DNA of 20,000 nt from Psammoneis japonica (lineage: Eukaryota): the NCBI GenBank assembly GCA_008632985.1, contig QPGO01000098.1, forward strand, positions 294,053-314,052, given 5' to 3'. This document shows positions 1-19,600 of the stretch, one piece after another. The notes below the pieces were generated by a model. The model was not told where the DNA came from. It searched no databases and was given only the letters and a program-made list of their open reading frames with translations. Each line of letters opens with the position of its first letter. The stretch's first letter is position 1. The translations under genes and the position numbers were made by a program.

Positions 1-2
1 AA

Positions 3-3000
3 GCGACGGCGCATGAGCCAGCGACAGTCGCTCAGTCTGGAGAAATGCTGTGCTCTGTTTGTCCACCAATCGGGCCAGTGGATCACTACATTGAAGACTT
101 TGTCAGTGGAGATGACATTGGACTGGTCACACGTGAGTGTGAGCTTGGAACTTGTCCTGGCCCCTGTCCCTCTCACGGCCACATTTGTGTGACGGGAGAG
201 GGCAACCGAGAGTGTGGAAAATGCGGAAAGACGTTTTGCCTGATGTGTGCAGTTAGAAACGAAGACGAATCTGGAAGCACCGACGTGGTGTGTGTCCCTT
301 GTCTTGGAGCCACAACAGATTCTGTAGATCCTGTGTCCAAGTTGTCAGAGAATGCATTGCGGGAGGCGCCAAGCGACAAAATTGAAGTGCCGGCTGACAT
401 GCCGATGGCGGATCTCCAGGAACTGTACATTGGCATTGTGGAGGGCGACTCAATGGACTCTTTGGATTCAAAAATGTTGGAGCAAGTGCGGCATCCATTG
501 TGCCACCCAAGAGCACTAGATTCGAATGAGAAAGTGTTGGATTTTGTGGCTGATTTTGACTTTCGAGATGGCGCTCGCTTTCTTCGTGATCGTGATCTCA
601 CCTGCATGCAGCGTTGTGGTGTCATGAACCTGTTGGCAGACCTTGTCACATTTGGGAAGAACAAAAGCTTGCCAAAGCATGCAGAGGTGCTGCCATCACT
701 TATCTCAAAATTCGCAAGCGAAGCAAGAGTCGACAGCGGAGAGCGTTTGATGAAGCGCTGCGCATGACACGCTCTCGACCCGAAATCGCCATCAATGCTC
801 CATGCACATGGCAGCATGATGGAGCACAATGGAGAAATGGGCCTCACAATGCATGACAAAATGTCACCATCGTTCAAGGATGGCATGTGTGCCGTGTCAT
901 CGGCATTTGCTGCATCCGATTTGTTGGCCAACAGATGCGAGTGTAAAGCTGGAGCGGAAAATCAGTCAGTGGTGGCAGAGGTTGGCGGGACCAGCACCGA
1001 CGATGCGGGAAAGCACGTGTGTGTACACTGCCTTCCGGTGCCGTGTAAGGTCACAATTCTTTTGATGGATGGTCTGGCAGAACACGCTCTTGTTGAGTTC
1101 TCGTCGTGTTTTGGCTGTCACGAGGAAAACAGCCCAGATGTTTCGGACAAAGAAAAATTGAGAATGTCCATTCTAACGCTGATGGATGCCGCCAGTTTTA
1201 AGAGTGCCGATTCTCTCCAATCGAAGTCGCCACATGAGCTGCTGCAAGCATTCGCGGTTGGTGCAGAGAGGGGCAAGAACAAGCTGCCCGACCCACCTGA
1301 CCCTGAAAAGTTGGGGCCAATGCGGAACTTCAAAAGAGTTTCACCAGAGGAAAAGGCAAAAATGGCATTGAAGATGAAAGAAGAAAAGACGGCAGCATCA
1401 ACCACGAATGTGGCAAATGAATCGGACACCTTGCCCGAACCAGATCATCTGACAACATCGCGGCTGTGCCGCACCTTCGCCAAAGTTCTCGCTGACAACA
1501 AAAGCTTGGATGAGACAATGATTGTCGGGCATCGTTTGCTTGACCTGCGTGCAAAGAAAGTTGGTGCAACTGATGCTGCCATTTCTTTGGTGGATGCTGG
1601 GCTAAGGCCGAGGGTCAAACAACTGTTCCAAGCAGCAAGAACCCGTGTGGATCCACGAACAAAAGCAGCAGAGGCAAAAAGGAAACTCGCAGCAGAACAT
1701 TCGGAGGAATCAGAGTTGCAACTGGAGGCGCAACCAAATGATGCAACGGAATCATCAAATGAAACAAAGCGTCGGGTGTCGAAACACCCGGCATCAAAAA
1801 GCACCCGTCGCTGCTGCTGCCAAAACTGCAACAACAACATTGCCACTGGTTCCAAGATTGTGCCGCCTGTTCCTGCCAAACCACCGGTGGGAGCCAGTCG
1901 CAACAGATGGATGACGCACTTCAAGAAACGGTTTGATTGACATGAATTTCTGCGACGAATCGGCGCAGATGAAAACGACTCATGCAAAGATCTCAGGATC
2001 TGCCTCTGCCACCCAGTGGAAACGACCACAAAATCTTTCACCGTGACGACACCAGCATTGACACCAGTTTCGTCACCACAAGGCGGAGAAGACGAGTCGG
2101 ACCATGAAAATGGCGAGTTAGAAAAAGGAGACGGTGCAGATGGGGAGAAAAAACCGACAGTGTTTTCCAAACGTGCTGCATTTGAAGGCCTGCCTGTTCC
2201 TTTGGGCGCCAAAAGCAACCGATCCGAGGCATCCCCTGCCACAACTTCTAAAGGGGTGGGAGAAGTGCGACAAATGGTGCGCTTTGCTGCTTTGGATCAC
2301 AAAGTTGGAGAAGAGGCTGTGCGAAATGAGTGTCTTGCTGTGCAGCAACGCACGGAAATTGAGCCGGGTGAACGAACCAAAATGATGGAAGAGGTCCATC
2401 CACATCTCCAGCAGTCCACAGGACCAGACCAGCACATCAAGTCGCCACCAAAGAAGAAGAGAGCCACCGAAATGACCAAACCTTCAAAGGGCAAACCGTC
2501 GACTGCCACTGTTCCGCCTGCAGTTGATCCTCACCCCATTTCGACTGCTGACGTTCAAACTCGCTGTGGGTTTGGATCCTTGTTGTTGCTGCTTTGTTTC
2601 ATTGCGGTTGTTTGCAATGGTGACATTTCTGCAATGATGAAAACAACAACAAGATTGAGTTGGTTTGAAGAATGGTTTTTTTTCTTTGAATTGCTTTGGG
2701 GGCGGTCTCTGCATCGCTGGGCAGATGCAGAGCGCACATGCAAAATGCACCACAAATGTCTTCAGAGAACATTCAAACAAAAGCTTGCTCTTGTTAAGTT
2801 GGCAGCAAATCGGTGGCCGCGACGCGTTTGTCACGAGGAGGACGTGTCCCTGCGCTCTGAGAAATGGAAGGAACAGCACAGAAACAAGCGTGTTGCAATG
2901 TGGGACAATGCAAATGTTGATCTGATGGGGAAGCCTACAGATGCAGATTTGCAGCGACTCACGCACTCACTTCATTGCGGCGGGAACTTGTCAAAGGCGG

Positions 3001-3439
3001 CATCTTTCTGCAACTTTGTGGGTGGCTTGGCGGCTGGGAGCTTTGGCTGGGAGCGGTGTCAGACTCAGACTGTTTAGAGAAAAGTGGGCTGATGCAGCAC
3101 CAAGAACAATTTCAAAAGATGGACCCAACCTCCACGCTGTCTTTCACAAACATCTTGGACAAGGGATGCCGGTGTGTTTTGGCCGCGTGGCGAGGAGGGG
3201 GGCAGCTGCTGCTTCAGCCATTCTTTGCTAAAAGTGATGGAAAGTTTGCCAGCCGTGAGGTCCTTTTGTCAGGTGCAGTTGCCAGTGACAGGTCGGGGAA
3301 TGAGCGAGCGGTCAAGCAGATGAAAATGAGCAACTTGATTGCTGGCGGCATTCATCAAAAACAAGATCTGAACAATTTTGCTGATGTCTGGATTGCCTGG
3401 GGTTTCCAATGCAATTTCATGCATGAGCCAGTGCTTTAA
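3..3439 (+). pseudogene. Large multidomain transposase (over 1100 codons, 5'-truncated): Cys-rich finger, SWIM-like finger, THAP-like finger, helical/HTH region, DDE_Tnp_4 catalytic domain
   Basis: ORFs 45..767, 795..1940 and 2016..3077 share one frame, interrupted by TGA at 765-767 and 1938-1940 (both plausibly CGA>TGA). A 1-nt loss near 2988 moves into ORF 2975..3439. Motifs: CECKAG...HVCVH (936-1028), CCCQNC...RICLCH (1812-2012), WP...WDN..V...P..ADLQRLT[H]SL[HC]GGN..KGG, W.GAVSD, ILDKG[C], QPFF...KF..RE...VA.DRSGNERAV, giving the D-D-E triad WDN/DKG/NER. Confidence 0.85.
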
Positions 3440-3659
3440 AACAACTGCAGCATTTTCACTTTACCTTGTAGAAGCTAGATGTTTTGTTTTGTCTTGTTGT
3501 TCTAGACTCCACTGTGTCGTTTCTGTTGTTTCGTGCGGGGCATGCTGACAGCCAAGTAACCCGGAAAGCAACCGAGAAATTCGAAAGGCACAAAGTCCAT
3601 TGCACTCCCAACTGGGGTGTTCCTTCCCTGGCGAGACTGCGAATGGCGCCTCCAAGGGA

Positions 3660-3690
3660 ACGAGGGGGTGCCATGTGACGTCGCCCACCC
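3660..3690 (-). repeat. Candidate right terminal inverted repeat (minus strand 5'-GGGTGGGCGACGTCACATGGCACCCCCTCG...)
   Basis: GGG-starting terminus, as is common in PIF/Harbinger-type TIRs, about 250 bp after the transposase stop and coinciding with the compositional break. The partner TIR and TSD are not visible in the window. Confidence 0.3.
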
Positions 3691-3699
3691 AAACTCTCC

Positions 3700-4550
3700 A
3701 TCAACAGCACTCAGCTGAAAGCCAGTGCAAATTGGGTTGTTGGTGCACACGTGTTGGAAAACAATGACAACCTTGAAAGAAAGGGGGTCACAAAAGCAAG
3801 CCATCATCTCTCAGCAGCGGCCACGCAAAAAACATTGAAACAGCAAGCTCAAGCTCATGGAAAGCTCATGCTGCTGCAGAGCCAATGACAAAAACAATGG
3901 CTTCATCACAGCACAAGCCAACAAAGGGTGCTGTCTGCCAGCACGGGTTTGTTGCCAGCTTTTGAAGAGCTGCTCCTGCACACAGCCCTGTGGCAAAAAA
4001 AACAAGTCACAAAACAGCAGCGCCAGAGTGATCTCAGCATGGCACTGTGCCACATTGAAATGATGTTGCAAGCTTTGGAGTTGTTGGCACCAGGGAAGGT
4101 GGCACATGAGTTGTCAGCATTGGAGCAGCAGCATGGCAGGCAGGTGGCAGGTGGTGCATCAGTGCATCAGCAGGTGGCATTTGAGTGCAGCGGGTGGCAC
4201 CTCAGCTTGTGGCGGCATTTGGAGCAGTCTTTGTTGGAGCAGCTGGCCAAAAGGTTTTTTGCAGTGAGGTGACAAGCTCCACTTCTTTGTCATCAACCAT
4301 GCTCACCTCACTGGCAATGAGAAAGCTGTCTGAGCACTCATCCACTGCTGGCAGGGATGTGCTCCAGGCAGCCCCGGGTGGAGCTCTCTCTGATGTGGGT
4401 CTGCAGAGAGCTCTGTGTGTGAGCTCTGCAGTTCACACACTGGGCAATGAATGTGTTTGTTTTCAAAATTTGAACAAACAACCACTCAACATTTTGGTGA
4501 CATTTGTGCATGCTGGCGCACCCTGCAGACACATCAAAGAGCTGCTTCAT
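3700..4550 (-). pseudogene. Degraded coding remnant of unknown function
   Basis: Protein-like frame with a Pro/Thr/Ala-rich linker followed by ...AAVL*LVFFATGL...EAIVFVIGSAAA*AFHELELAVS..., where the stops are TGA and can be read as CGA. Frameshifted; no family recognised. Confidence 0.35.
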
Positions 4551-4848
4551 GCAAAAACTGTGCAAAAAGTTGTTGAATGGATTGCCCAACAACTGTGCTA
4601 CAAACTGACACAAAATGTCACCAAAGTCATGCAAAAAAATGCATGTGCACAATGCACAACCTGTGGTGCACATGAAACAAAAACTCAAACTTGATTTCAC
4701 TCAGTGGAGTCGCACCTTTGCCCAGCAACAGTGGCGCTGGCTGGCCCACACTTCCAGCACACCCTCCTGGGGGTGAAGCAGAAGCTCATGCAGTCAGCCA
4801 GTCAATGTGCCACTTTGCAGTGACGCACACCAGAGACCACTTGTTGAG

Positions 4849-5930
4849 ATGAAGCTCTGCACAAGAATGAGGACATTGCTTTCTTTTGGAGAGAACACAA
4901 AGCACCCAAACTGCCACAGCAAAGGATGGTCACGTTGTTCAGAAGAGGATTCAAAGTTGGCACAAACTCTGAGAAAAAAACCTTGCTTCCAAGGATGGGT
5001 CTTGTCTTTAACAAAGACTGGCCAAGTTCCACATTTGCATGTGATGGAGCAAAAGCAAACAGCTCACTGCTTGCTGGCAAGTGTGGAAGAGGGGCCATTC
5101 AGGACTTCATGCAGGTGTTTGAAACAGGGAGCCTTGGCAACATGATGAGAAGGATGTTGGAAGAAACACTGCTCTCACACAGAAGTGACAGCAAATCTTG
5201 CACAGAAATGCCAATCCTTGCAGCAAATGGATGATTGTCCAGTGGTGCCAATGGTTTGTCCAAACAAACACACACAAGCACCACAGCAGGAACAGTGCTT
5301 TCACCACATGAAGTGAAGAAATTGAGCAGCCAGCAGGAGAAAAGGAAATTGTTGAGGGCTGATGGGTGTGGATGGAAGTTCATTGCATGGGAAACATTGT
5401 GGTTGTCAGTTGGTGTTTCTGAAGTGTGCAGAATTTGCACCAGATCCTGCACAGAAAATGCGCCCAATCTGCAAAAAATTGCCAAATGAGTTGACAAGCA
5501 TGCAAACCACAAGACATCAATGCCAGTCATTTTCCATTGGAAAGTGCTGCATTTCATCCTGAAATGAGGGGGCACCAATGTCAGAAGTGGCCAAAAGGGT
5601 TTCAGGGGACCCAGTGAAACACCATCTGAGAACACATGCAGGGGCTGTGAGTGGGCAGCTCATGTCAGGAAATGTGTGGTGCATGACCAAAACAATGCCA
5701 ATGTCACAACCCAGCAGTGTGAGGCCCCACTCAGAGCTGGAGACTGTGTGTTTTGGGACATGCAGATGTCATTTGCCGGGACAAGCTTCTGTGCCTTCTT
5801 GCATCCCATCCCTTGGTGGTGACACATGCAGTGCAGCAGGTCAAACAATTTTTTGGCACAGCACATTTCAAAAAAATCCTCTTCTCACCTTTTGCTTGCC
5901 ATTTTTTTCACTTTGTGAAGGTTGATGTGG
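4849..5930 (+). pseudogene. Degraded coding remnant of unknown function
   Basis: ORFs 4926..5234 and 5235..5489 are in one frame separated only by TGA, and the frame continues through further TGAs. No Tyr, excess Met/Cys/His. No family recognised. Confidence 0.35.
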
Positions 5931-6020
5931 AAAGTGCAGTTGGGCCTGCATTTGCTGGGAGGAGGTTTGCCCATGAAGAAAGGAAGGGGGCTGAAGCTGC
6001 CTCTGTTGGGGTGGCAACTT

Positions 6021-6138
6021 TGCATCAGCAGCAGCACAACCCACATTGGGGACATCTCTTCCAGCTGGCATTGAGTTGTTGCATCAGCAGCAGCACAACC
6101 CACATTGGGGGCATCTCTTCCAGCTGGCATTGAGTTGT
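6021..6138. repeat. Tandem duplication, 2 x 59 bp, one mismatch
   Basis: TGCATCAGCAGCAGCACAACCCACATTGGGG[A/G]CATCTCTTCCAGCTGGCATTGAGTTGT at 6021-6079 and 6080-6138. Confidence 0.97.
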
Positions 6139-6566
6139 TGTCATCAAAGCCATAAAAATCATTGCTGGTTGGACATGCAACATCGTCTTGAAGAATTGAC
6201 AAGTTTGCATGACAAAGCTGCTGGCAAGCCAGTGCCAGCCGGTGTGCAGTGTGACATTGAAGGGACACCGCCAGGCATCCCTTTTGCATTTGATGCTTTT
6301 GATTTGCACAGATCACATGCTTTCTTTTGAAACAGTGGCTTTTTGGTCTTTGCTGTGAGTGCATTGTGTGAAGATGCACCAGCTTTGTAAGTTCTTTCTT
6401 GGACTGCTTTTGGCCATGGGCCAGCACAGCACTGTGGACACAATTCCAAAAAAAAATCCAGTGGAGCAACTCCAGTGAAAAAAACAAATCCATGGCTCCA
6501 CATCAATGTGAAATGGAATCATTGTTTCCATCAGCAAAGCACAGAATGAGTCTTGCTTCTTGTGGC

Positions 6567-7102
6567 TCCAGTGGGTGATGGAGAACTCATGTCACTTGAT
6601 CATTGATCAGAGTGCTTGACTTCTGCAACCGGACAGAAGTGTCATTCTTCAAAAACTGCCATGTTGAAATGGAGTGCACAGAGAGATGCGATCTCTTTTG
6701 CATTTTCCTTTTCCAAACTGGAGAGTTTGTAGTCAACCAAGTGCACAGTGCATTTCATCCCTTTGCCCCACAGTGTGGCACCTTGGCAGTGTCAATGAGA
6801 AGATCATCACAACTCTCATTGGCCACCTTGCACCACTCCTGATCAATTCCAGTGGGCAACGGAGATCCCGCATCATTTGATTATTGATCAGAATGTTTGT
6901 CATGTGCAGTGGGGTGGAAACATCCTCATTCAAACTGCCAGAATCAAGAAAAGACATGGTGATGCAATCTCTTGCACTTTCCTTTTCCAGATTGCAGACT
7001 GCGCAATCAATCACACATCCACCGCATTCCGTCCATTTTGCCCGGCGGTGGCACCTCTGCACAATCAACAAGAAGATTGTTGCAATTGTCAACGGCCACC
7101 TT
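6567..7102 (-). repeat. Old diverged tandem duplication (period about 275-280 bp), probably a duplicated protein domain of a minus-strand pseudogene
   Basis: Colinear anchors in both copies: TCCAGTGGG (6567/6848), TTGAT.ATTGATCAGA, AAACTGCCA, GATGC.ATCTCTT, TTTCCTTTTCCA, GTGGCACCT, GGCCACCTT (6821/7094). Minus-strand translations share LEKE.A and RWP. Confidence 0.75.
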
Positions 7103-7331
7103 CATGCCCCTCCTCCAACCACTGTTTCTTGAGCATGATGACTCCAATGAAATCATCTGATTTTACAGCAGGCCTGAGTTTGGCTGCTCGCTCCCTTTCC
7201 GGCTGAGAATGTGATGCACACGCTGATTCACCTCGTCCAGGCCCAATGCTGTACGGCAGTAGAAGTTCGTTGGACAATTAAGCTGTCTCGACAATTAAGT
7301 AGATTAGCAAGAGAGTGATATATCATAATAT

Positions 7332-8690
7332 CTAGTGTCTCTGCAAGAATGAATGCTTTAGCAGCGTTTTGTAATGCGGGCGATCTCGTGGGGATATCTT
7401 TAGCATGGATTTCAAAAAGTCAACAGCTTGCGCCTTTTCCTCTTCGCTTACTCGGTCATTGTCGAGTCTCGGGAAAACTGTCTCTTCGCAATTCATCAAG
7501 AATGGCTTGAATTCTCGCTTTTCAATGTCAGATCGATCCAGGTCTACAAGATCTGCAAGGTCAAACTCTCCATCGTCGGCGTGACTGCTTACAGGAATCA
7601 TGACATTGCCTCCAATGTGTTCAAGCGTAGCTCGCATTCTATCGTAGTGTACTGGGGGATCTTGCTTGAATGACGACCCGTCGTCCCATGAACAAGGGAA
7701 ATATATTAAGCGAGCAAACAGAATGCCAATTGACCAGACGTCATATTGCCAAAGATTAGCGTATCGCAGCTTGACTTTTTTTCCATTCATGACCACGTGC
7801 TCAATCCAGGCTTCGGGTGGGACAATGCCAAAGTTGACGTCGATAGCATAGAAATCTTCATCCACAGTTTGGCCTGAATTCCAGTCAACAAGGAGGGCAC
7901 CGCCATCGCTCTTGTCATAAACAACGTTGGTTCTGACAAGCAAATCGCAATTGTTGAGACCAAGACCAATTGCGTAGTCCATTTGACTTAGAAGACTTCT
8001 CATAAACGTGCGAATTTGATGCAAGCTTCCCATGTATTCATCCTTGGTAACCCAGTCTGAAACAAAGTCAAGATGCGGCACGATGTGAACCACCAGTCGA
8101 TCTTCTTTGGCAAGACGCGTGGCTTGTTTTGTTGGCATGGAATTCCAAAACGTTCGAATCTTGTGTCTGCCACTTACAATGTTCTCTGTTGCGTTCAGTC
8201 CAAGAAAGGGATTTGTCACATTCCTGTCAGCAAACACCAGCTCCATTATTTTGTGCGTTCGTGCTGCCTCCTTATCTGCATTCAAACGTTCCATTGCATC
8301 AAGTTCGTACGTTGCATATCTCATATACCATGCAAGTTTGAGTAGCATTCTTGACGGTTCTCTTTCTTCTTGCTCCCACCACCACTTTGGAAGAGTTACA
8401 TCACAAACTAAGTTGACACCACCACGCGCGTAGTATTTACCAAGCACCAAGTCATCAAACTTCAATTCTCTTTTGCTTCTTGGTGCTTCTAGTGGCAACT
8501 TTTGAATCATTTCCTTTTGATACGGAAGATTGGATGCATCCATTGTGGTATTTCTGAGTAATAAAAATTGTGTCAGTTGTGAAAATATCCAGGCAACAGC
8601 CAAGAGCGTGAGATAACGACCGATTTTGGCACCAAAGAGACGGCTCTTCCTTTTCGCTGACGACGCCATGGTTTGTGCAAGCTTCGCCAT
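7332..8690 (-). CDS. Atypical Ser/Thr protein kinase-like protein with N-terminal signal anchor (452 aa)
   Basis: Intact ORF. Basic patch KRKSR then hydrophobic YLTLLAVAWIFSQL. Kinase subdomains: GKYYARGG, LLK, NCDL...N (HRD position), DWN (DFG position), PPE, DVWSIGILF, DFLKSMLKISPRDRP..LLKHSFL. Confidence 0.88.
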   Translation of the reverse strand: MAKLAQTMASSAKRKSRLFGAKIGRYLTLLAVAWIFSQLTQFLLLRNTTMDASNLPYQKEMIQKLPLEAPRSKRELKFDDLVLGKYYARGGVNLVCDVTLPKWWWEQEEREPSRMLLKLAWYMRYATYELDAMERLNADKEAARTHKIMELVFADRNVTNPFLGLNATENIVSGRHKIRTFWNSMPTKQATRLAKEDRLVVHIVPHLDFVSDWVTKDEYMGSLHQIRTFMRSLLSQMDYAIGLGLNNCDLLVRTNVVYDKSDGGALLVDWNSGQTVDEDFYAIDVNFGIVPPEAWIEHVVMNGKKVKLRYANLWQYDVWSIGILFARLIYFPCSWDDGSSFKQDPPVHYDRMRATLEHIGGNVMIPVSSHADDGEFDLADLVDLDRSDIEKREFKPFLMNCEETVFPRLDNDRVSEEEKAQAVDFLKSMLKISPRDRPHYKTLLKHSFLQRH

Positions 8691-9128
8691 TGTGGAACGC
8701 CGAAAATCAAAATGCAGATTTTTTTTTTGCTAAAGCGATCGACCGTCAATCCATCGTACGTTGAGACAAAAAGGCAAAAATATGGAGAAATTGGCATCCG
8801 AAATCTGTCTGAAACAAAGAAAAAGCGAGGAAAATGTTTGGAAACGCCAAAACCAAGGAGAAAGACCGTTGGGACGTGCCGTTGGCGATTCAACGGACGT
8901 CACTGCAGTCTTTGTATGCTAAATATCTCGAGATCGGTCGCCGGCAGAGTTTTTGAAACTCAGGAACGCCGGCCCAGCACGCGCCCACGCTGTCAAGCGC
9001 AAACGGCAAACGGTCTTATACACACACAACCAACGACCAACGAACACATTGAACGACCTCATATCGACCGGTACCCCCTGTCTGTTTACGCTTCCTTCGT
9101 GGACATTTAGTCCAGCACACCGTGCACC

Positions 9129-10121
9129 ATGACAAAACCCGGCAGTACGAGAGAGAACGGAAAAGGAGTCGCCAGTGACGATTCCAGCAAGTCGCATGAA
9201 ACCGAAAGTCGAAGATACAGGGCAAGAAATTGCGCGCTGGCGATTTTCACCCTGTGCGCGTTAACGGTTGGAATAATGGCAGGTAAAGCCGGTTCATATC
9301 GAGAAAAAGGGTCTTTGGAAGTGCATCCGGCGGTGGACTCAAATTTCGATTCAGAGAGTGACCTATTGAATGTGGGCAAAGGTGGCAGCTGCAAGAAGCA
9401 ACCAGATACAAAAATAGGCAACACCACAGACGGCGATTTGAACGGCACACAGAATGGCGGTAAGGCAGAAGACTGGGAGAGTTTTAATGCCTTGCAGCTC
9501 TACGACTACCTCGAATGTGTCTATTATTCAGAATACGAGGTGGAGTTTCCAATTCGCAGTCAGGAGACCTATCAATTAATGCGAGCCACATTTCACAATG
9601 TAGTTGGACCAGAAAAATCTACAATCGGTCTACCCTTGGATGGTTCCAATGGATTCAAATACCCATACGTCGTCAAACAAAGCCCTGGTAAAGGCCGAGG
9701 AATCTTCGCTGCTGCAGATATTCCCAAAGGAGACCTGGTTTGGTCCAACGATAGAACCGCCATATTTCCAAATTCTTGGTATTACCGAAAGTTTTTGCTA
9801 TCGTTACCTCCAAGCATTGCCTGTGACTGCATGCAGTGGACTTATATCTACGATCTATACGGCTTGGGTAAGGACAACAAGAAAATCATGATTGATCTCG
9901 ATGAAGGAGCACTGTGCAATGACGGCGAAGCTGACGACAGTAGCGACATTACCAACATCGGTTGGGATAGAGATTTTGCCAGAACTGCTGATTCAGGAAA
10001 CGGAATGCACCTTTTAGCTCTTCGGGATATCAAAGCCGGAGAAGAGTTCCTTTGTGACTACACGCAGTTTACATCTGAAGGCGAGGTGGACTGGGCAAAT
10101 CATGATCTCAGCTGGGTTTGA
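9129..10121 (+). CDS. SET-domain protein (putative lysine methyltransferase) with N-terminal signal anchor (330 aa)
   Basis: Intact ORF. RRYRAR followed by CALAIFTLCALTVGIMA. SET motifs VKQSPGKGRGIFAAADIPKGDLVW, EGALCND (NH position), ALRDIKAGEEFLCDY. Confidence 0.9.
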   Translation: MTKPGSTRENGKGVASDDSSKSHETESRRYRARNCALAIFTLCALTVGIMAGKAGSYREKGSLEVHPAVDSNFDSESDLLNVGKGGSCKKQPDTKIGNTTDGDLNGTQNGGKAEDWESFNALQLYDYLECVYYSEYEVEFPIRSQETYQLMRATFHNVVGPEKSTIGLPLDGSNGFKYPYVVKQSPGKGRGIFAAADIPKGDLVWSNDRTAIFPNSWYYRKFLLSLPPSIACDCMQWTYIYDLYGLGKDNKKIMIDLDEGALCNDGEADDSSDITNIGWDRDFARTADSGNGMHLLALRDIKAGEEFLCDYTQFTSEGEVDWANHDLSWV

Positions 10122-10250
10122 CGCGAAAAAAAAGATGCCTTGTAGCAATGATGATGACATTGACGACATCGACGACGACAGCTCCGCAGCTACCAGATGT
10201 TATTCAATGGCAACACCGAACCTTTACACAAGAGATGGATCAACAGATTA

Positions 10251-11850
10251 TCATGAGCTAGCGCCATAATTCATAATATTGTAGTTCAGTTCCAAGGGTG
10301 AGGAACAAGAATTTGCGGCAGATGCAATGCGTTTTGCTTTAATTAAGTCGTGTAGATGTCCCAAGTTTCCAGTGCCTTTTTTGAATGATGTTGCCCCTGT
10401 GCCCGCCTTTGTTCCTGCTGCGTTCTTGATGGGTGTTAGCACAGTGGCGTGGGAACAGCAAGCAACTGGGACCAGTTTTGGCCCATCCCTTGCTGACAGT
10501 GTTGTGAAATTGCAGTCATGACTTGTTGGATGACAGAAATGGTTTGGGGTGTGTGTGAGATTTGCTGTTTTTGTGAGCTCAGTTTTGTTTCTCCACATAT
10601 TTTGCTGGGTGCTGAGTCAGAGTTTTCACTTTCCATGGTTGTTGCAACATGATGGTGCAGTCCATGATTGACTGCTCTGTGATTGCTTGTCTTGTCCCAG
10701 CATGTGCTTGCAGAGCTTGCCAATGCACCAAAACCTTGGGTGCATCTTTTGCTGCACACCAAGGTTGCCAGATTCTGTGCATTGGCAGGCACCACCAGTT
10801 GCAGTGGCCATGCTTTTGTTGTCAGTCATGCCCCACTTTGCCAAAACATTGAACATGGCTTCATGACCAGAAATTCACAGATTGGTTGACGTTGCCCATC
10901 AGATTGGGAGAGCAAATGCTCTTTAAAACAAAATGAGCCTTTGGTGTTTTGCACTTCCACAGTTTGGCAAGCCAAGCCAAGCAGCCAGGATTTGGTCAAC
11001 AAGAGAGAACGTTTGAGACTCTGAGACTGCAACCTCGTTGATGCACCAACTGCATTTTTGCTCAAATCACCCATGGAAAAACTGACACAATGGTGTCATT
11101 TGGCTCTGCCAGAAGGGCTTGAGCCAACAATGGTGTGGCACCACAATCCTGCTGTGTCTTTGCCATGCTGCACCAAATGTCGGCAAAATTTGTCAAGGGC
11201 TCTTGGCTGTTGCCTGTCTCCTCTGCACACTTTCTTCACTGAGGTTGGGTGATGTTCATTTGTGGCCACAGATGTGCAACCTCAGCAAAGGTGACTCCAT
11301 CTGCACACCAGCGTTGCTGGTGTGGCGATGCTTGTTGGAGGCTTGACGCTGCGCACTGCCACACACATGGCGGTTGGAGCCTTTGCGCCAGAGTGTCTCT
11401 TGTCTTTGTTTGAGGCTTGGCAATGCCATCACAAATGGGGTTGGAGATTTTGCACTGCTGTCACTTGTGGCAGTTGGAGCCTTTGTGCTGGTGCACTTGT
11501 GGCAGCAGGTTTGAAGCTTTTGCACCCCGTTGGGTGGGGGCACCACGAACTTGTTGGTGGTGGCCGGGGTGGTTGGAGCTTTTGCACTGCTGTCACTTGT
11601 GGTGCTGGTTGGAGCCTTTGTGCTGGTGTCATGCATGGTGGTTGGAGGCTCCTTTCTAACATGAAAAATGACAAACAATTCCTCCTTAGATTGTCACACG
11701 GAGGCAGTCCCTCTGAGCTTGAAGTCTGTCTTTCATTCCGTGATTGTGAGAAGACCGTGCGGGGAGACAAAACGACGCACGATGACACACAAGTCATTAC
11801 GCACTGTATTTCACAACTTCGTCGAGGGAGAAGCAACAGCAAGTTTGATT
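10251..11850 (-). pseudogene. Hypermutated, frameshifted remnant of a host-like gene with a Ser/Thr/Pro-rich KAPT-repeat linker
   Basis: Minus-strand fragments (TSTKAPTSTTSDSSAKAPTTP..., ...PKLVPVA[CC]S[H]ATVLTPIK...) in shifting frames. Only 2 TpA in 10441-11655 (near 10598 and 10924), CpG also low. Boundaries approximate. Confidence 0.55.
11372..11648 (-). repeat. Imperfect internal repeats encoding (T/A)KAPT units
   Basis: GGTTGGAG.TTTTGCACTGCTGTCACTTGTGG...GTTGGAGCCTTTGTGCTGGTG at about 11439-11493 and 11571-11628; a shorter GGTTGGAGCCTTTG copy at 11372. Confidence 0.85.
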
Positions 11851-11898
11851 TGTGTTTGTGTGTATTGAACTATATTTTCAAAAACGAGACACATCATC

Positions 11899-12791
11899 AT
11901 GAGTGAAGACTCTCCGATATCCCCTCGTCAGGCCATGGCAAAACAGTCTTCGTTTGCACGTTCCTTTTTCAGTTCCGAAGCAGCGGCAAACCCTCCCGTC
12001 TTTGATGGTAACGACGATGACGACGACGATTACCGTCCCGACAGTCGTCGTTTCTTCCCGCCCAAAGTCGAGTAGTAGCAGTAGACGCAGCAAGAAACCT
12101 GCAGTCAATACGGAAAACCTTGCCATGGCTGCCGCAAGAGATACTACTACCCACAACAAGAAACCCGCAGCAGCAGCTGCAGCAGCACTCAAGTCGGATT
12201 CCGCTGCTGAAGATTCGTGGTATACCGGTGGCAATGATCATCTCTTGCAGGATGCTCCACCCGGGTGGAGACAAGACGACGGATGAAAGTTGGAACGATG
12301 ATGAAGTATTGGAACAATACAGGCTCATGGCACAACACGAAGCCACCGCACGTGTTTTGGAAAACACGGGCTTTGATGCACGGGAATACGAACGCCGTCG
12401 CAAGCTCGAACAACAGCCCGAACCCAAAAAGGACGGTAGTAGTAGTCTGTATGGTGCGAGCCGCAAACCACGACAGAAATTACCGGAACCACGAAAGATT
12501 GTCACGTCCAGCAGTGACATGTCTGGCATCAAACCCGTGGAGGCTCCCAAACCGCCTCCGCTCAAGCATACGCGATTGATTGAACAAAAGGTGGAGCGTG
12601 TGCCCGAACTATGTCCTGGACAAGCCATTACGGGGAGTGCGTCCGGACAAGTGTTTTCCGCGGATGAAATTGTGGTGAAATGCTTGGGGTCGTGCGACAA
12701 GCAGTTGCGTGTGCATCGGTATGCCACTCTGGTGAGTTGTCCGGTTTGTCACACGGTAAGTCCAGCCACGGCTATTCGTGCGGGTAATTAA
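11899..12791 (+). CDS. Hypothetical low-complexity protein with C-terminal zinc ribbon (LSD1-like spacing); two apparent +1 frameshifts
   Basis: ATG at 11899 (MSEDSPISPRQAMAKQSSF...), continues in the 11903 frame after about 12050 and in the 12120 frame after about 12281. Ends CLGSCDKQLRVHRYATLVSCPVC. Confidence 0.7.
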
Positions 12792-12935
12792 ATGTGCTGT
12801 GAAACAATGTACTGGCAGAAAATATCCTAAGGCTGGAGAACAAGAACGGATTGCACAAGAAGATTTATACAATGTTAGCCTGAAACTAAGTAAAGTTTGT
12901 TTATGCCTACCCCTCTGCGAGAAAAACTCTCCGAC

Positions 12936-13394
12936 TTAGTTCATTTTATCCAATGGCCTATTGAAACCTCCTTTACGATTCATGTATTGTCGGTATTTGC
13001 GTGCCTTGTTTTTGGCCGTCGCTCCCCGTGCCGCCGAGCTCGCGTTATCCTCGACGGCTTGTCCCTTTGTGGATGCAAAATCACCAAATCCCAGCAACCG
13101 TTGCATTTGTTCTTGTTCGTCCAATCCCTCCAATTCTTCCTCGTTCACAGTTACAAATTCTTCCTTGGGTTTGGGGCGTAATTTTTCTTTTTCTTTCATT
13201 TCGTTGGGTTCTTCCAATTGGCGTTCTTCGAGTTCATTTTCGGCACGCAATCGTGCCATGCGTTCGCGGCGTTCTTGCTCGAGTCGTTCGCGGCTTGCAG
13301 CAGGACTCTGTGACCGAGTCCGTTTTTTGTTTCGGGTAGTTTTTTCGGTTGCAACAACGCCATGGTGCCTGTCATCTTTGTTGCGGTCCGACAT
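12936..13394 (-). CDS. SNRNP27: U4/U6.U5 tri-snRNP 27 kDa protein (DUF1777 family)
   Basis: R/E-rich N-terminus and the signature C-terminus MQRLLGFGDFASTKG...RKYRQYMNRKGGFNRPLD. Confidence 0.93.
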   Translation of the reverse strand: MSDRNKDDRHHGVVATEKTTRNKKRTRSQSPAASRERLEQERRERMARLRAENELEERQLEEPNEMKEKEKLRPKPKEEFVTVNEEELEGLDEQEQMQRLLGFGDFASTKGQAVEDNASSAARGATAKNKARKYRQYMNRKGGFNRPLDKMN

Positions 13395-13716
13395 GGCTTT
13401 GCTGCTTCTTCTTCTTCTTCTTTTGTTTTATATTACAGTGTGTATTATTGTTGCGTGTTGTCTGTTGCGCTGGCTGTAGTATGTTGTGTTGGTGCTTTTC
13501 TTTTTCGGTTTGGCCTTGTGTGCTTCCCGGCCTGAGTGTGATGGATGGACAGACATTGGAACGAAAATCTGACCTCACATTCTTTTGCGCGTTTTTTTCA
13601 CACAAACGAGAAAATTCTTCAGAAATTTTACTCATTACAATTAATTGTTGCATTGACTGTAATATTGCTATTGATGTAGAGTTTGAGCCTTGATAGGTTT
13701 TTTTTTCTTGTTGGTC

Positions 13717-15187
13717 ATGAGAGTTCTCGCAAGATCCTCCGTGTTTTCATCATCACTTGCTCCATGCGGCAAAAAACGACGACACTACTTGAGTGTCTAT
13801 GCCATGGGTGAAGGGTGGACGGGAGCATTGGGAACGGGGGACTTGGATTCCAACATTGATGGTCACGACGATCAAGAGGAGGCGTCTCAAATACCACCGC
13901 CGCTGGTATTCGAGGGCAAAACAAGAGCTCTTGCGACCGGTTGGGGTCACACAGCACTCATTACTGAAAACGAAAACAAACTCTACGTTTGTGGTCGACC
14001 ACAAGATTTTCAAGCTCTCTTGAGATTAAAACGTTTACCGGGCTTTTTACGACAGCATGCCGTCAATCATGCACTGCGAAACTATTTTACTCGAGAACAA
14101 GACACGACACTGGTCGGTCGGGTCTTGTCGTGGATGGTGGGACAAGAACTCGATGGCCAGGACGGTCCGTGGGCGAATGCTCGACAACTTTCCGTCTTGC
14201 CCAATTTTACACCTATACCACTACCCGACGGGGATGAGCCGTCGTTGAATACAAATCAAAATCGAATTTTAGCGGCGAGTGCCGGTTTGACGGCTGTCAT
14301 TGGAAAAAGCGGTACACTTTATACGTTTGGCACCAACACGCGTGGTCAGTGTGGAGTGGGGGAAACGAGCAACAATGTATGGACACCCCAACGTGTGGTG
14401 GGACTCAGCACACAATTTGCACACGACGGACGCGACAAGTTAGAACAAGAGTTTCCCATGGTGAGTGTCGCCTTGGGATTGCAGCACGGACTTGCCCTGG
14501 ATGACCAGGGCAATTTGTTTGCGTGGGGCAAGGGTGAACGTGGCCAACTGGGGCAAGGACAACAACAAGAGGTGCAAAGCTCGACACATGCCTTGCGTGT
14601 CACTCGTTTCCAACTTCCCAGTAATCTTGATGGATCACGACGACTTGAGGACAATCCCGTTGTCACAAAATTGCCGCCGGCATGAATCGATCGGCGGCTC
14701 TCACAAAAGACAATCATGTCTATGTGTGGGGCAAGAATATATTGCCGCCGCCACTTGCCGACAAAAAGAAGGCATCCATGATTTCAGACTCACCCTGGCC
14801 ACACTTTGTTGAGGGCCTTCCCAAAATATGCAAGTATTGGACATTGCCTGTGGCTCACATCACACGGCCATTTTGCTCGAGGACGGCAGTGTCTTTTGCG
14901 TTGGCCTTACATCCGACACGGCCCAACTCGTGTCGCACGCCATGGAAATTGTTCCACCCGGTGTCGTGGAATTGCCGATTCAACAGTTTGATGCTCACTT
15001 TGATCGAACCACAATTGTGGGACGAGGTGGCAAACAAGTCTTGCAGGTTCACTTGTGGCAAGATGAGGAGCTACAAGAAGATGGAATCTTTACTCCGCCG
15101 TGGGTCGAGCATATCTTGAAGGATGATGACACGAGAATAAGAGAGGTACAGCGTGGATGGTTGCACACGATCGTTGCAACAATGTAG
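13717..15187 (+). CDS. RCC1-repeat protein, possibly mitochondrion-targeted; two apparent -1 frameshifts in A runs
   Basis: RCC1 repeats GWGHTALI, LYTFGTNTRGQCGVG, VALGLQHGLAL..GNLFAWGKGERGQLG, IACGSHHTAIL, GWLHT. Adding one A near 14668 gives TKIAAGMNRSAAL and one A near 14825 joins to MQVLDIACG. N-terminus is R/S-rich and lacks acidic residues. Confidence 0.88.
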
Positions 15188-15455
15188 TACCTAGAAAGAA
15201 GAAATCTCGAGTAGTAAAGAAAAAGAGCTAGTAGAGCATTACTTTTTTAGAACAAAGTTTGTAGTCACGCACAGCGTCTACTCGGCGCTAATGGCTGCGA
15301 GACGCAACGTAGTCCTGAATGACTCCATGGAGCTCATATGGCTTGAATATGTACCGACAACGACTTGTGTCGTCCTCAATCATGTAGATATGTAAGAATA
15401 TGTATAGCCAAAAATAAAGAATATGCAAGGTGTTTTGATGGTCATCAAAATAGGC

Positions 15456-15725
15456 TCAAATGATAATGTTCATCGAGTCGGAGCCCAACGCAACTTCGAC
15501 ACTGTCGTTGTTGCACGGATAATCCATGATTGGATTGGCTCGTTGAAGCACTCTGCATGCATCTAGAGCTGCTCGTGTAATTTTTTCATGTCGTCGGAGG
15601 GACGATGGTCTTGATGGCATGGTGGCATCCTGGTGACAACCGCCGCACGACGAGTCGGATGGAACGAAGAATGCTGCTGCTACAGGAAGCATGCAAAGGA
15701 AAACGCCGTATTCTGCACCCGTCAT
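15456..15725 (-). CDS. Possible small hypothetical protein with a signal-peptide-like N-terminus
   Basis: ATG start then GVFLCMLPVAAAFF (AF cleavage-like motif). May extend to about 15280 through a stop or frameshift. No family recognised. Confidence 0.3.
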   Translation of the reverse strand: MTGAEYGVFLCMLPVAAAFFVPSDSSCGGCHQDATMPSRPSSLRRHEKITRAALDACRVLQRANPIMDYPCNNDSVEVALGSDSMNIII

Positions 15726-16163
15726 GTTGACTACTTGTGGATGGAAAGTGTTGCGATAGCAAGTTGCAAGCTGTTGATGGGTTGGTCGTGTTTGTTTTCT
15801 TTTTTTTGTGAGGCTCTATTTCGGTGCTATTTTTTTGCCGAATCTTTCGTTCGTTGAAGAAAACGATCGCGTTAACGCTTTCCGTTATTTATAATATTCA
15901 ACATCATATTTCGTTCAATGATAAGCCGTTTTCGGATTCATCGAACTATCAGCGTTTTACGGGATAGTAAAAGATACTCAGTACTAAGTGATTATTCTAA
16001 TCGACATTGACATATTTGATACTGTGTCCGGTCATTTACGGACATCTTTTTTCGAAAACAATCCAGGATAGACGGGTGAGCTTTTAGCCTCTCGAAAAAC
16101 GGAAGCAAGCCGTTGCATCGCAGTCCCATTCGAGGACAAGTAGTGTCTTGCATTCCAGAAGAT

Positions 16164-16250
16164 GCTCTACTCTACTGTAGTAGCTACTCTATCTCTCTAG
16201 TAGTAGAGCTAGAGAGTAGAGGGCCATACTCTCTACTCTAGAGAGTAGAT
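16164..16250. repeat. CTA/TAG-rich low-complexity tract with short inverted repeats
   Basis: CTCTACTCT (about 16165) is complementary to AGAGTAGAG (about 16213); TCTACTCT-AG-AGAGTAGA at about 16232-16249. Confidence 0.6.
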
Positions 16251-16630
16251 GGAGGGGCTGCCCTTGAACCGCGTGAGCAACAATGAGCAGTGTGGTCCAG
16301 CGATGCACAGTTTCTCATTATGGTGTTTCGGAGCATGATTTGCACCATTTCTCGGATGCTCTATGTGCAATCGTAAAAACTCCGTTACAAAGCGATGAAA
16401 CGGTGGGATCAAGAGACAAGGATGAGGAAGCAAAGCAAGGAAGAAATGTGGAGATTTGATGATGAACTGCACGGGACCATGTGCGCGACGTAACGGTGGA
16501 TCAGAGATTCTAGACGAAGCAATCTCTACAATCGATTTAGATGGCAACAAACAAATGCCAGCGTTACCAACAGGTTTCACCGAAAGTTTTGTCCCAGGGT
16601 GCTGCCGTCGCTGCATCGGTTGCATGGATT

Positions 16631-19600
16631 TCACATGAAACATCCTCGAGGTTTATTTTCATGCACTGGCACCCGTGCGGTGTCATCCCTCTTCGTGCGC
16701 TCGTTGTAAATTTCAGTGTCGATGGTGTCGGAGGCCAAGTACCGCCACACATGAACCTGCGAATCCAAGAAGCGATATGATTAGAAAGTTGTTGGAAAAA
16801 CTGCTCAAGTAACCCCGACCGAATCGTGGCTTGGACTTACTGTTTTTGTTTGACCATATCGACGAATACGTCCAATTGCCTGTGTCTCGTACGCATCATA
16901 TTGCTGAGGCTATCAACAAGCAATGGGTGGACCTGCCAGCAGAGAGCGCAAAGCATTGCAAATTTTGTTAGACACGTCCCGTCGAGAGCCGAGAAAATCA
17001 AAGTCAACTTACAAATACTGCGTGGTTGCAAGTGGTTAGATTGACACCCGCCGACGTCTCATCATCTAGCGTCAGCAAAAGACATCTGGGGTCGTTCGCA
17101 CCAGGCTCGACTTTCTGGAGTACGTCCAACGCCTTTACCTGTTTTTGAACGGAACCCTTCACTTGAAGCGTCTTGACATTCCGTTTTTCAAGCGCTTCCG
17201 CTACCTTCTCCTTCAAGTCCTGAAATTGTACGAAAACTATGACTCGATCTCCATCCTGAACTAGACTCTGCACCTTGTCGACAATCAAAGTCAACTTTGC
17301 TCCATACTGTCCCCCACCCGGGCCCAAGTCCAACTTTGCGCCAAGACTGTCTGCGGGAACAACATGGGCGCGTTTTATCTGAGCTCTACACGACGGGTCA
17401 ATGCAGGTTTCTGCGTCGGCACACTTGTTTAGACAACGCAAGCATCCCACGTGCCCGCAGCAAGATAAGACTCCAGAGTTTTCCATATCGATTCCCTTCT
17501 GTTTCATGCACTGTGGCGAGGGGCAGCTAATGGTCGTCTCCTGCTGAAACTTGCATACCCATTGAAAATAGCGCAAACTCCGAATACGGCCACAGAGCTC
17601 TTTGCAATCAGATCTGACAGTATGCATATGGTTTCGCAACGCCCATTTCATTTCTACCAGAGAACTCTCGTCTTCGTCTTTTTTGGAGGAACGCTTCCGC
17701 TTCTTGCTTCCTTCCTCGTCTTTTGGAATTTTATCTGACGCAGCTTCAACAATCTCTGCCAGCTTGCTGTGAATTTCGTCGTCCGCGCCACCCGGAATGG
17801 ATTGGCTCAGCTTCACATCAGCAAGGAAAATTGACAAAGTGTCTTGAACCTCATCCTTTTCGGTTCGGGACAGCCTTCCCAGTCCGGTTGTAGCTACATG
17901 CAGAACAATGCGAGAAGACGAATGAGCTAAGCTACAACGGACTTATGCGCGCAAAGCGTTGAGACCGCATGAAACCCTTACCGTCAAGATGCATTTCCGC
18001 TGCTTCAGTGCGCTGACAATCGAGTCTTTGAGCTGGTTTTCACATTCCTGTAGCTGTTCTTGTCGAAGCTTTGCGATAAACGAGCAAGTTTCAGCCGCTG
18101 TTGCTTTTTCCTTCCCACACATGTTGAAGTGAGAACACCGCTTCAATAAAGCCTCCTCAGCAGACGCTGAGTTTTCAAGCACCTTTTGCATCCGATTGTC
18201 TCTGTCTGACTGAGTTGCCTTTTTCGATTTCCGAGCTTTCTTCTTGTTCATTTCTAAGCTCTTTAGATGAGTTTCGAGCTCCAGATAAATAGCTTTTTCC
18301 GCCGGGGGGAGGTCAACAAATTGCATGTGCTCCTCGAACTTAATTTCGTCAATCTCGGCAATGTTTTGTCTAACAAATCGATCGAGAAAAAGCTGGGCAA
18401 CCTCGTGTCGCCGTTGATGCCATTGAACTGACCGCATTTCGAGCATTTCGGAGAATTTCTCAAGACCACTCGTCTCGCTGGAATTCTTGTTGCCTCGCCT
18501 GGTACCAGGTAAACTTTCATCTACGCCCAAATGGATGCCTAAAAGCTTTGCTAAGCTTTGAACGTCGTTGAAATTCTCGTGAGGTGGCGTGCCTGACAAG
18601 CACCAACGAAAGGAAGACTTGAGACCAAGAACAAGCGTGAGCACACGAGCTCGGTCCTTCTTTTCTTCCAGGTAATGAAACTCGTCTACGGTAGAGATGT
18701 AAATACAACATGTGGTCAGCGCGAAAGAGAAATGTTCGTGCCGATTGTGCTCATGGCATCCACGTACCTACGACAATTCTATTCCAAAAGAACATTTCCA
18801 GGGGCGGGCATTTCATTTTGCTACTGTCTTTTTTGACTTGAGCCGTCGATAAACCCCATGGATCAAATTCCGTCTTGACCGTACCTGACTTGCCTTTGGC
18901 GCGAGATGATGAAAGTTTTCTATCACGACCACTGCTTCCGACTTTCGTTTGCTCCTCTGAAACAGCTTTGTACACTGCTTTCTTGCCATCTAGACGAACC
19001 GTCTCCTCGACTTCTTTCTCTGAGTGTGCAAAGGAGTCTCTCTCGATGCAATCGAACACATTAGAACAGTCTCCCTTCAAAGAGACGACTCGCTCCGAGA
19101 GCCCTGTTAGGCATTCGTTGTAAACCGCATCAAAATGTTTGCCTCCCTTTCCGCTGGGTAAACTGCTGGGTCAGCCCCGGCAAGCCGCGCCAATCTACGG
19201 AAGTACAATTCCGAGCTGAGAACGGTGAAGTTCACAATGACAATGTCCGCTTCTTGGATTTCTTTCGACGTTATTTTGTTGAAGCCGGACATGTCTTTGA
19301 GAACGATAACCCTTTTGCTTTCGCCAAGAAATTTCTTGACTTCGTTTGGCTGTAGATGCAAGGAGCATATTTTGCGGTTTGTTAGATTTTCAAGTCATCA
19401 GCACGGATACGAAGTAAGAAACGAAACGAGAAGGAGAACGTACCCACTGAGACATCAAATGACCGGTACAATGACCAACGTTGCACGGGTGGACACGAAT
19501 GAGTTACTGAGCTTTTCGAGAATCGCCGGCGGATCTCCGTTTACACTTGGAGCGGCATCGATGAGCCCAAGCGTAATGGCAGTTTTTCCATAGCCGACCT

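Follow-up and report, generated by a model that had tools for sequence, protein, structure and literature searches.

We analysed a 20,000-nucleotide stretch of the genome of the diatom Psammoneis japonica (GenBank assembly GCA_008632985.1, contig QPGO01000098.1, positions 294,053 to 314,052 of the forward strand; hereafter the window), and found three blocks from which the dinucleotide TpA has almost disappeared, the first of which carries a dead transposase gene that we call TE1. In these blocks the changes are confined to the TpA context, run from TA to TG or CA, affect both strands and are restricted to the blocks, and paralogous copies have undergone them in independent events. The three blocks are very probably mobile or foreign DNA that lies silent in the host genome, and in which A:T pairs have been mutated to G:C at TpA only. 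A sequence-only reading of the window had proposed a locus-targeted conversion of TpA to TpG or CpA on both strands, and the tyrosine (Tyr) columns of the transposase, the closest related locus for which DNA is available (L001), the paralogous contigs and the base composition all agree with this proposal.

TpA depletion in three blocks

We computed observed/expected (O/E) dinucleotide ratios for each segment, and compared the pooled blocks with the flanks by a Fisher test. The TpA O/E is 0.07 in positions 1-7250 compared with 0.47 in positions 7251-20000. Segment 1-3436 has 18 TA (TpA O/E 0.09, CpG O/E 0.74) and segment 3701-7163 has 6 (TpA O/E 0.03, CpG O/E 0.14), and a third block, 10438-11656, which was absent from the sequence-only reading, has 2 (TpA O/E 0.03, CpG O/E 0.18). 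In the flanks, the TpA O/E is 0.49-0.53 and the CpG O/E 0.99-1.06. When the segments are pooled, TA occupies 26 of 8120 positions in the depleted blocks compared with 404 of 11531 in the flanks (Fisher p=1.4e-63), and the longest TA-free runs in the blocks extend over 1144, 1042 and 733 bases, compared with a maximum of 181 in the flanks. The earlier counts of 19 TA in 1-3440 and 7 in 3700-7250 were exact, and the loss of TpA reported with them stands; the strong CpG depletion of 3701-7163 and 10438-11656 had not been stressed there. The blocks and their visible right boundary are as follows.

1..3439, plus strand: block 1, TE1, assigned as a pseudogene of a large DDE_Tnp_4-type transposase, truncated by the left end of the window (tblastn of the homologue P0007, Pfam matches of homologues, composition)
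3701..7251, unstranded: block 2, without recognisable coding content (TpA O/E 0.03, CpG 0.14, TG 1.85, CA 1.94)
7252..7335, unstranded: sharp right boundary of block 2 (12 TA in 82 bases), where CpG is back to normal and a kinase-like gene comes next
10438..11656, unstranded: block 3, between the SET-domain gene and the next gene (2 TA, TpA O/E 0.03, CpG 0.18)

The O/E of TG and CA reaches 1.4-2.2 in the depleted blocks. The four pyrimidine-purine (YpR) dinucleotides together make up 0.241-0.256 of positions in every segment of at least 1 kb, a constancy expected of interconversion, because transitions turn TA and CG into TG or CA. On the other hand, ApA is not depleted (AA O/E 1.26 in 1-7250 compared with 1.21 in the flank); thus, the target is TpA, and not A after any weak base. 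The borders are narrow, being resolved to 88-161 bases where they are visible in the window. At the right border of block 2, TA occurs at 6882, 7164, 7252, 7260, 7279, 7296, 7300, 7305 and onward, with 12 TA between 7252 and 7333, so that the abrupt switch at about 7252 described by the sequence-only reading, from widely spaced TA (6882, 7164) to dense TA, is borne out.

The surviving TA are unevenly distributed over tetranucleotides: TTAA accounts for 4 of 26 in the blocks and 13 of 404 in the flanks, and CTAA/TTAG for 7 of 26 and 39 of 404, respectively; none of the 26 TA of 1-7163 and 10438-11656 lies in ATAC/GTAT or ATAG/CTAT. This skew may hint at a wider sequence preference of the process, but the numbers are too small for a conclusion, and some of the sites are stop codons.

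Tyrosine loss and paralogous copies of TE1

When the homologue P0007 (1517 residues) was aligned with the window by tblastn, its residues 363-1381 fell on positions 12-3029 and its residues 1370-1517 on positions 2993-3436 (54% identity); therefore, the window holds about the last three quarters of the transposase gene, with a frameshift near 2993-3029. The coding sequence follows frame 3 from position 3 to about 2993-3029 and then frame 2 to a TAA at 3437-3439. In the list of open reading frames (ORFs), frame 3 is open over 3-3077 apart from two stops, and the second frame runs from 2921 to the same TAA. The lesions of TE1 and the stretch behind it are listed below.

765..767, plus strand: in-frame TGA stop in TE1 (ORF list; CGG in a paralogous contig, with 765 T>C and 767 A>G)
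1938..1940, plus strand: second in-frame stop in TE1, a TGA since there is no TA at this place (ORF boundaries 768..1940 and 1941..3077)
2993..3029, plus strand: frameshift zone of TE1, from frame 3 to frame 2 (overlap of the two P0007 tblastn segments)
3437..3700, unstranded: stretch downstream of the TE1 stop, with 6 residual TA (3437-3557) and 12 CpG, still rich in TG

None of the four pieces of TE1 searched against Pfam had a match at E<=0.01, and the family was assigned through homologues for this reason. The last 172 residues of TE1 matched 618 proteins at E<=0.001 among 1.84 billion representatives, and the best 150 of these 618 matches include 10 proteins of 1446-1977 residues in which the match lies at the extreme C-terminus. 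All five long homologues that were tested carry PF13359 (DDE_Tnp_4) at the C-terminus (E 9.6e-11 to 4.9e-06), and P0007 matches it at E 4.7e-08; the diatom Odontella aurita has a named relative of the family. TE1 itself retains the motifs MWDN, ILDKG and NERAV. By these similarities, we assign block 1 to the DDE_Tnp_4 (PIF/Harbinger-like) DNA transposons, as a dead copy. It resembles DDE_Tnp_4 transposases of the PIF/Harbinger-ISL2EU kind in the PF13359 matches of its long homologues and in the three motifs, but differs in that its family is very long (1446-1977 residues), with the DDE domain at the extreme C-terminus. A search for inverted repeats of at least 30 nt in the window found none; the 5' end of TE1 lies outside the window. 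The roughly 1300 residues upstream of DDE_Tnp_4 in the relatives P0001, P0007, P0010 and P0013 fall into no Pfam family, with the exception of a faint THAP-like match in P0013 (E 0.095). Right after the transposase stop, the 6 residual TA lie within 121 bases (3437-3557) in TG-rich surroundings, and this piece looks like a partly converted, formerly very TA-rich 3' tail of TE1.

Tyr is nearly absent from TE1, with 2 in the 1025 codons of frame 3 (3-3077) and 1 in the 173 codons of frame 2 (2921-3439). Frame 3 has 42 Cys and 37 His. We defined a conserved Tyr column as one with at least 60% Tyr in the ten long homologues, and obtained 14 such columns, of which one (3048, past the frameshift) was dropped. 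At the remaining 13 columns, the window has His in 6, Cys in 4, Tyr in 2 and Arg in 1. In particular, close relatives at 50-79% alignment identity have retained the Tyr of DKGY and of SDSDY without exception (17 of 17), and the window has Cys at both, as the sequence-only reading had stated. Its assignment of CAC 2964, CAT 2973 and TGC 2976 to conserved Tyr was likewise confirmed. At two further positions, His in the window stands opposite Phe or Tyr in the close relatives; for the His after NFM (3422), the residue is as the earlier reading gave it, and the lost Tyr is ambiguous, the relatives having Phe or Tyr there. The two clearest motifs are given below.

2964..2978, plus strand: His-Ser-Leu-His-Cys (CAC TCA CTT CAT TGC), where relatives have Tyr-Ser-x-Tyr-Tyr (alignments)
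3158..3169, plus strand: Asp-Lys-Gly-Cys (TGC 3167-3169), where the fourth residue is Tyr in 17 of 17 relatives and most read DKGY (alignment)

Where Tyr has become Cys (TGY), the A>G change lies on the coding strand; where it has become His (CAY), on the opposite one. Both kinds of replacement are intermingled along TE1, even in adjacent codons (CAT at 2973 and TGC at 2976); therefore, both strands were targeted.

To compare TE1 with its relatives at the DNA level, we scanned a metagenome collection with an alignment of the TE1 family, and identified 52 loci encoding relatives. Their TpA O/E is 0.46-1.23 in 52 of 52, with none near 0.09; therefore, the poverty in TpA is not native to the TE1 family. 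The ten long homologues have a Tyr content of 2.4-4.3%, and the relatives are thus natively free of neither Tyr nor TpA. The closest locus, L001, shares 72% nucleotide identity with the window over 531 aligned columns. Its 16 TA correspond in the window to TG at 8 sites, CA at 4, TA at 1 and others at 3, and in the reverse direction 1 of the 4 window TA in this stretch is CA in L001. The changes hence carry the TA-context bias that the sequence-only reading had predicted, with 12 of 16 TA sites turned into TG or CA and a single case of the reverse. In addition, the 27 CG of L001 are CA at 9 sites, TG at 4 and CG at 7, among others, in the window, and only 4 window CG lie opposite TG or CA in L001, from which we conclude a net loss of CpG in the window.

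We then turned to sequencing reads. Three runs are listed, from one sample and one study; X1 alone contains the stretch, X2 covers little of it and X3 nothing, and no RNA run containing it is listed. Contigs were built from exact 31-letter words of X1, and 382 of them were placed on the window, many at 85-95% identity. Contigs of depth about 60 reproduce the TA-free sequence over 3598-4799, 5242-5987, 6186-7527 and 9677-12000, with 3-9 differing letters each. On the identity of the bases in reads, which the sequence-only reading had also raised, the TA-free sequence thus stands, with the proviso that X1 has no recorded library type and is possibly the source sample. The summed X1 depth is 134-234 over 1-3600 and 500-1200 over 4401-5600; therefore, both segments are repeated. 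Over 3601-4400, 6001-7200 and 10401-11200 it is about 60, corresponding to a single copy, with the limit that old copies may have diverged beyond 85%.

The contigs differ from the window by transitions at 311 places and by transversions at 76. Among the best-supported 40 of 391 difference rows, which form 27 groups, 20 groups are YpR-to-YpR transitions, 8 of them double swaps of TG and CA, and the remaining 7 comprise 3 transversions and 4 transitions in other contexts. In the same 40 rows, the window has TA where a paralogue has TG at 2 sites, and TG or CA where a paralogue has TA at 3 sites. From the double swaps, and from TA being retained at some sites in the window and at others in a paralogue, we conclude that the copies were targeted independently after their separation, within this genome.

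The proposed process and its alternatives

In the process that we propose, A:T would be changed to G:C solely at TpA, on either strand, and each TA would end as TG or CA, which is no longer a target, making the process self-limiting. Tyr codons of TE1 (TAY) would accordingly become Cys (TGY) or His (CAY) codons. On top of this, methylated CpG would decay to TG or CA at a slower pace; blocks 2 and 3 would be far along in this second process, and block 1 only part of the way. The conversion of CpG to TpG or CpA is indeed present in the window, as seen in the CpG O/E of blocks 2 and 3 and in the CG sites of L001, and accounts for the CpG part only. Since block 1 combines a TpA O/E of 0.09 with a CpG O/E of 0.74, the loss of TpA is separable from the decay of CpG and, in block 1, faster. 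Regarding the chemistry, an ADAT2/TadA-like enzyme that deaminates adenine in DNA to hypoxanthine has, in our estimate, nearly an even prospect of being the agent. The natural tRNA substrate of such enzymes has a U before the target A. As for the targeting, the CpG decay together with the single-copy targets suggests that a silent, cytosine-methylated chromatin state, and not repeat number, is what marks the DNA.

The sequence-only reading knew of no characterised mechanism for such a pattern. This no longer holds, since the same signature has been measured in the chlorarachniophyte Bigelowiella natans by Mettrop et al. (bioRxiv 10.64898/2026.01.13.699255). According to the text of this preprint, 231 of the 302 nuclear point mutations in mutation-accumulation lines fell in two integrated viral regions, and 230 of these 231 were A>G or T>C, all 230 at TpA; the rate was about 6e-7 per site per generation, about 1000 times the background, and the hypermutation was confined to some lines. 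The hypermutable giant-virus region is described there as single copy and transcriptionally silent. The preprint also reports 324 TpA-poor coding sequences, enriched for DDE endonuclease and reverse transcriptase domains, and 124 clusters of 1-kb windows poor in TpA and rich in CpA+TpG, and proposes adenosine deamination in DNA, with an ADAT2 homologue as the candidate enzyme. Its main text mentions neither 'CpG' nor 'diatom'. Among the literature retrieved on TpA depletion or TA loss in transposons, RIP (the hypermutation of repeats in fungi) and diatoms, it alone describes this signature.

The two cases agree in several respects. In both, TpA becomes TpG or CpA on both strands, and the changes are confined to blocks in an otherwise normal nuclear genome, the blocks being foreign in B. 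natans and block 1 being a transposon here. Both show low TpA with high CpA+TpG as a long-term footprint, with DDE endonuclease genes among the TpA-poor sequences, and in both single-copy DNA can be a target. They differ in the host, a chlorarachniophyte there and a diatom here, in the recognisable target, a virus there and a transposon here, and in the background, TpA making up 3.5% of dinucleotides in our flanks (404/11531) compared with the 6.0% quoted for the B. natans nuclear genome. Moreover, the erasure is far deeper here (O/E 0.03-0.09 compared with a Rho of 0.45 in the giant-virus region, as given in the preprint) and is accompanied by CpG decay, and the rate was measured in B. natans, whereas here the footprint is known from sequence alone. 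By this analogy, the window probably shows the B. natans type of TpA signature in a diatom, on a DDE_Tnp_4 transposon and on non-coding DNA.

Two other processes leave partly similar traces. As in the window, fungal RIP hypermutates mobile DNA by dinucleotide-specific transitions, ruins its coding sequences and leaves a footprint with sharp borders. The enzyme family behind it is a relative of cytosine methyltransferases. However, RIP turns CpA into TpA and raises TpA (PMC2621366), whereas in the window TpA falls to an O/E of 0.03-0.09 and CA/TG and GC rise. The earlier remark that the pattern is the opposite of RIP is therefore right, with TpA down and CA and TG up in the blocks. Furthermore, RIP needs duplicated sequence, whereas parts of the blocks are at single-copy depth, although older copies of these parts may lie beyond the 85% identity of the comparison. 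Diatoms carry DNMT4 relatives of the fungal RIP enzyme, for which, as outlined in PMC9998398, a function has not been established; the same source states that transposon methylation in a diatom depends on DNMT5a. The decay of methylated CpG likewise ends in TG or CA, marks transposons and is seen in blocks 2 and 3 (CpG O/E 0.14-0.18). However, it cannot remove TpA, and block 1 uncouples the two.

Among the alternatives, the closest to the proposed process in its outcome is that the thymine of TpA in silent DNA is oxidised or otherwise modified, as 5-hydroxymethyl- or 5-formyl-uracil or in a manner like base J, by a TET/JBP-type enzyme, and then mispairs with G to give T>C. On double-stranded DNA this leaves an identical footprint, and the Tyr, L001, paralogue and composition data fit it equally; in dinoflagellates, TpA and TpC are described as the preferred sites of hydroxymethyluracil, and mispairing with G is described for 5-formyluracil. 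However, nothing in the window points to a modified thymine, the literature found on 5-hydroxymethyluracil concerns, by title, dinoflagellates and not diatoms, and the authors of the B. natans preprint favour adenosine deamination, naming the ADAT2 homologue as candidate; we consider this explanation unlikely. Error-prone repair of heterochromatin, for example patch synthesis by a polymerase-eta-like enzyme making A>G errors at WA motifs, would suit the resemblance of the blocks to silent chromatin, given their CpG decay. TA is also an A>G hot spot of polymerase eta. Yet WA includes ApA, whose O/E of 1.26 in 1-7250 exceeds the 1.21 of the flank, and the loss is strictly at TpA and near complete. 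We rejected this explanation as very improbable because ApA is not depleted.

That the sequence itself is at fault, a modified base at TpA (and 5-methylcytosine at CpG) having been miscalled in DNA that still reads TA, is slightly less credible again. The depleted blocks are those expected to carry DNA modifications, and the sole run containing the stretch may be the source sample. On the other hand, the contigs of exact 31-letter words (depth about 60) agree with the TA-free blocks over 746-2324 bases but for 3-9 letters, and the noisy reads of 2019, with their sensitivity to modifications, are not expected to yield such contigs; were the miscall specific to one strand, half of the reads should still support TA; TE1 also has TGA stops and a frameshift; and the same changes in B. 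natans were called as real de novo mutations from Illumina NovaSeq data (bioRxiv 10.64898/2026.01.13.699255). We rejected an artefact on the evidence of the contigs, of the TGA stops and frameshift, and of B. natans. A native or selected composition, in which the family avoids TA because of a TA-cutting nuclease or TA-targeting insertions or descends from a TA-poor donor, would account for borders that are sharp and limited to the element. It is refuted for TE1 by the ordinary TpA and Tyr of its relatives (O/E 0.46-1.23 in 52 of 52 loci, Tyr 2.4-4.3%), TE1 is a pseudogene that has lost a conserved Tyr beside a DDE motif, and paralogues show TG and CA at the same sites; we give it hardly any weight. 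The same small weight falls to ADAR-like A-to-I editing of double-stranded RNA followed by reverse transcription and reinsertion, an idea that draws on the preference of ADAR for U before the edited A. To our knowledge, ADARs are confined to animals. The preference for U is noted in the B. natans preprint, too. However, TE1 encodes a DDE transposase and hence belongs to a cut-and-paste DNA element, adjacent codons are changed on opposite strands with no bias to one strand, and the paralogues were changed independently after copying. We rejected RNA editing with retro-copying on these grounds.

Several points weigh against TpA-directed mutation of silent mobile or foreign DNA as the explanation of all three blocks. 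The evidence comes from one window of 20,000 nt and not from genome-wide repeats, and current activity rests on no de novo mutation seen in the window data. Blocks 2 and 3 are labelled mobile or foreign DNA because of the repeat depth of 4401-5600 and because they share the signature, an argument that is in part circular. At one conserved Tyr column the window has CGC (Arg), and a second transition outside TpA is needed to reach this codon. Since X1 is possibly the source sample, and of unrecorded library type, confirmation by a second sequencing chemistry is unproven, and the paralogue comparison is based on the best-supported 40 of 391 difference rows, in 27 groups.

Taken more broadly, a defence that edits DNA at TpA may be seen here for the first time beyond the chlorarachniophytes, in a stramenopile. 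It would erase more than 90% of TpA in transposons and single-copy silent DNA, outpace the decay of methylated CpG and be steered by the same silent, cytosine-methylated chromatin; editing immunity would then be old and widespread in the SAR lineages. We put this forward tentatively, as a possibility somewhat short of an even chance. TpA-only hypermutation of foreign DNA was first reported in 2026, in one chlorarachniophyte (bioRxiv 10.64898/2026.01.13.699255). If the diatom footprint on a transposon is true, the process is neither an oddity of one species nor limited to viruses, and a second footprint would make it possible to ask which deaminase or modification genes are found together with it. 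Compared with B. natans, what is new here is probably the host lineage, the transposon target, the much deeper erasure and the visible separation from CpG decay, block 1 having lost nearly all TpA with its CpG largely intact. In addition, repeat annotation of such genomes would have to take account of Tyr-free, stop-poor, 'ORF-rich' relics, which are misleading to gene finders.

Blocks 2 and 3 and the flanking genes

Many long ORFs run through all six frames of the blocks, because TAA and TAG are scarce. We searched 20 ORFs of 3502-7206 and 10251-11906, 15 of them from block 2, against Pfam, and none reached the curated cut-off. The X1 contig at single-copy depth begins at 3598. The core of block 2 (4401-5600) is highly repeated (X1 depth 500-1200 compared with about 60), and the rest of the block is at single-copy depth; many contigs join across parts of this core, as in a short dispersed repeat family. 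Block 3 is likewise at single-copy X1 depth (59-60) over 10401-11200, and has tandem repeats of 32-36 nt at 11407-11647. A repeat search of the window found short tandem repeats only, and no inverted repeats. At 6020-6137, in block 2, a 59-bp unit stands in tandem at 98% identity, with one A/G difference (GGGGACA and GGGGGCA) that lies outside TpA. The TpA signature, together with the strong CpG loss, fits blocks 2 and 3 being older, cytosine-methylated silent DNA.

The genes in the flanks are listed below.

7332-8729, minus strand: gene of a divergent kinase-like protein, with normal TpA and CpG
9111-10121, plus strand: gene of a SET-domain protein, with normal TpA and CpG
12936-13427, minus strand: gene of a SNRNP27-domain protein, with normal TpA and CpG
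13687-15119, plus strand: gene of an RCC1-repeat protein, with normal TpA and CpG
16697-20000, minus strand: SNF2 / RING / Helicase_C gene, truncated by the right end of the window

These genes have long exons and a few introns of about 80-100 bases. Their best protein matches reach 45% identity for the SET-domain gene and 58% for the SNF2/RING/helicase gene, and none is near-identical; the closest named relatives of the SET-domain gene are from Chaetoceros tenuissimus (42%) and Helicotheca tamesis (41%), both diatoms. In the Protein Atlas, one of two flank genes gave a weak hint of Bacillariophyta and the other gave no taxon. The flank genes thus look like those of a diatom and not of B. natans, on identities that are low. 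The SNF2 gene is interrupted by several intron-like insertions, each about 80-100 bases long, and the apparent in-frame stops, such as the TAA at 17943-17945, lie within them. Among its relatives are fusions of a PF00145 cytosine methyltransferase with SNF2 (P0178, 48% identity), and the cluster of one relative has members named 'site-specific DNA-cytosine methylase'. Judging from these relatives, the SNF2 gene may code for the ATPase portion of an enzyme of the DNMT5 type, which in diatoms keeps transposons methylated.

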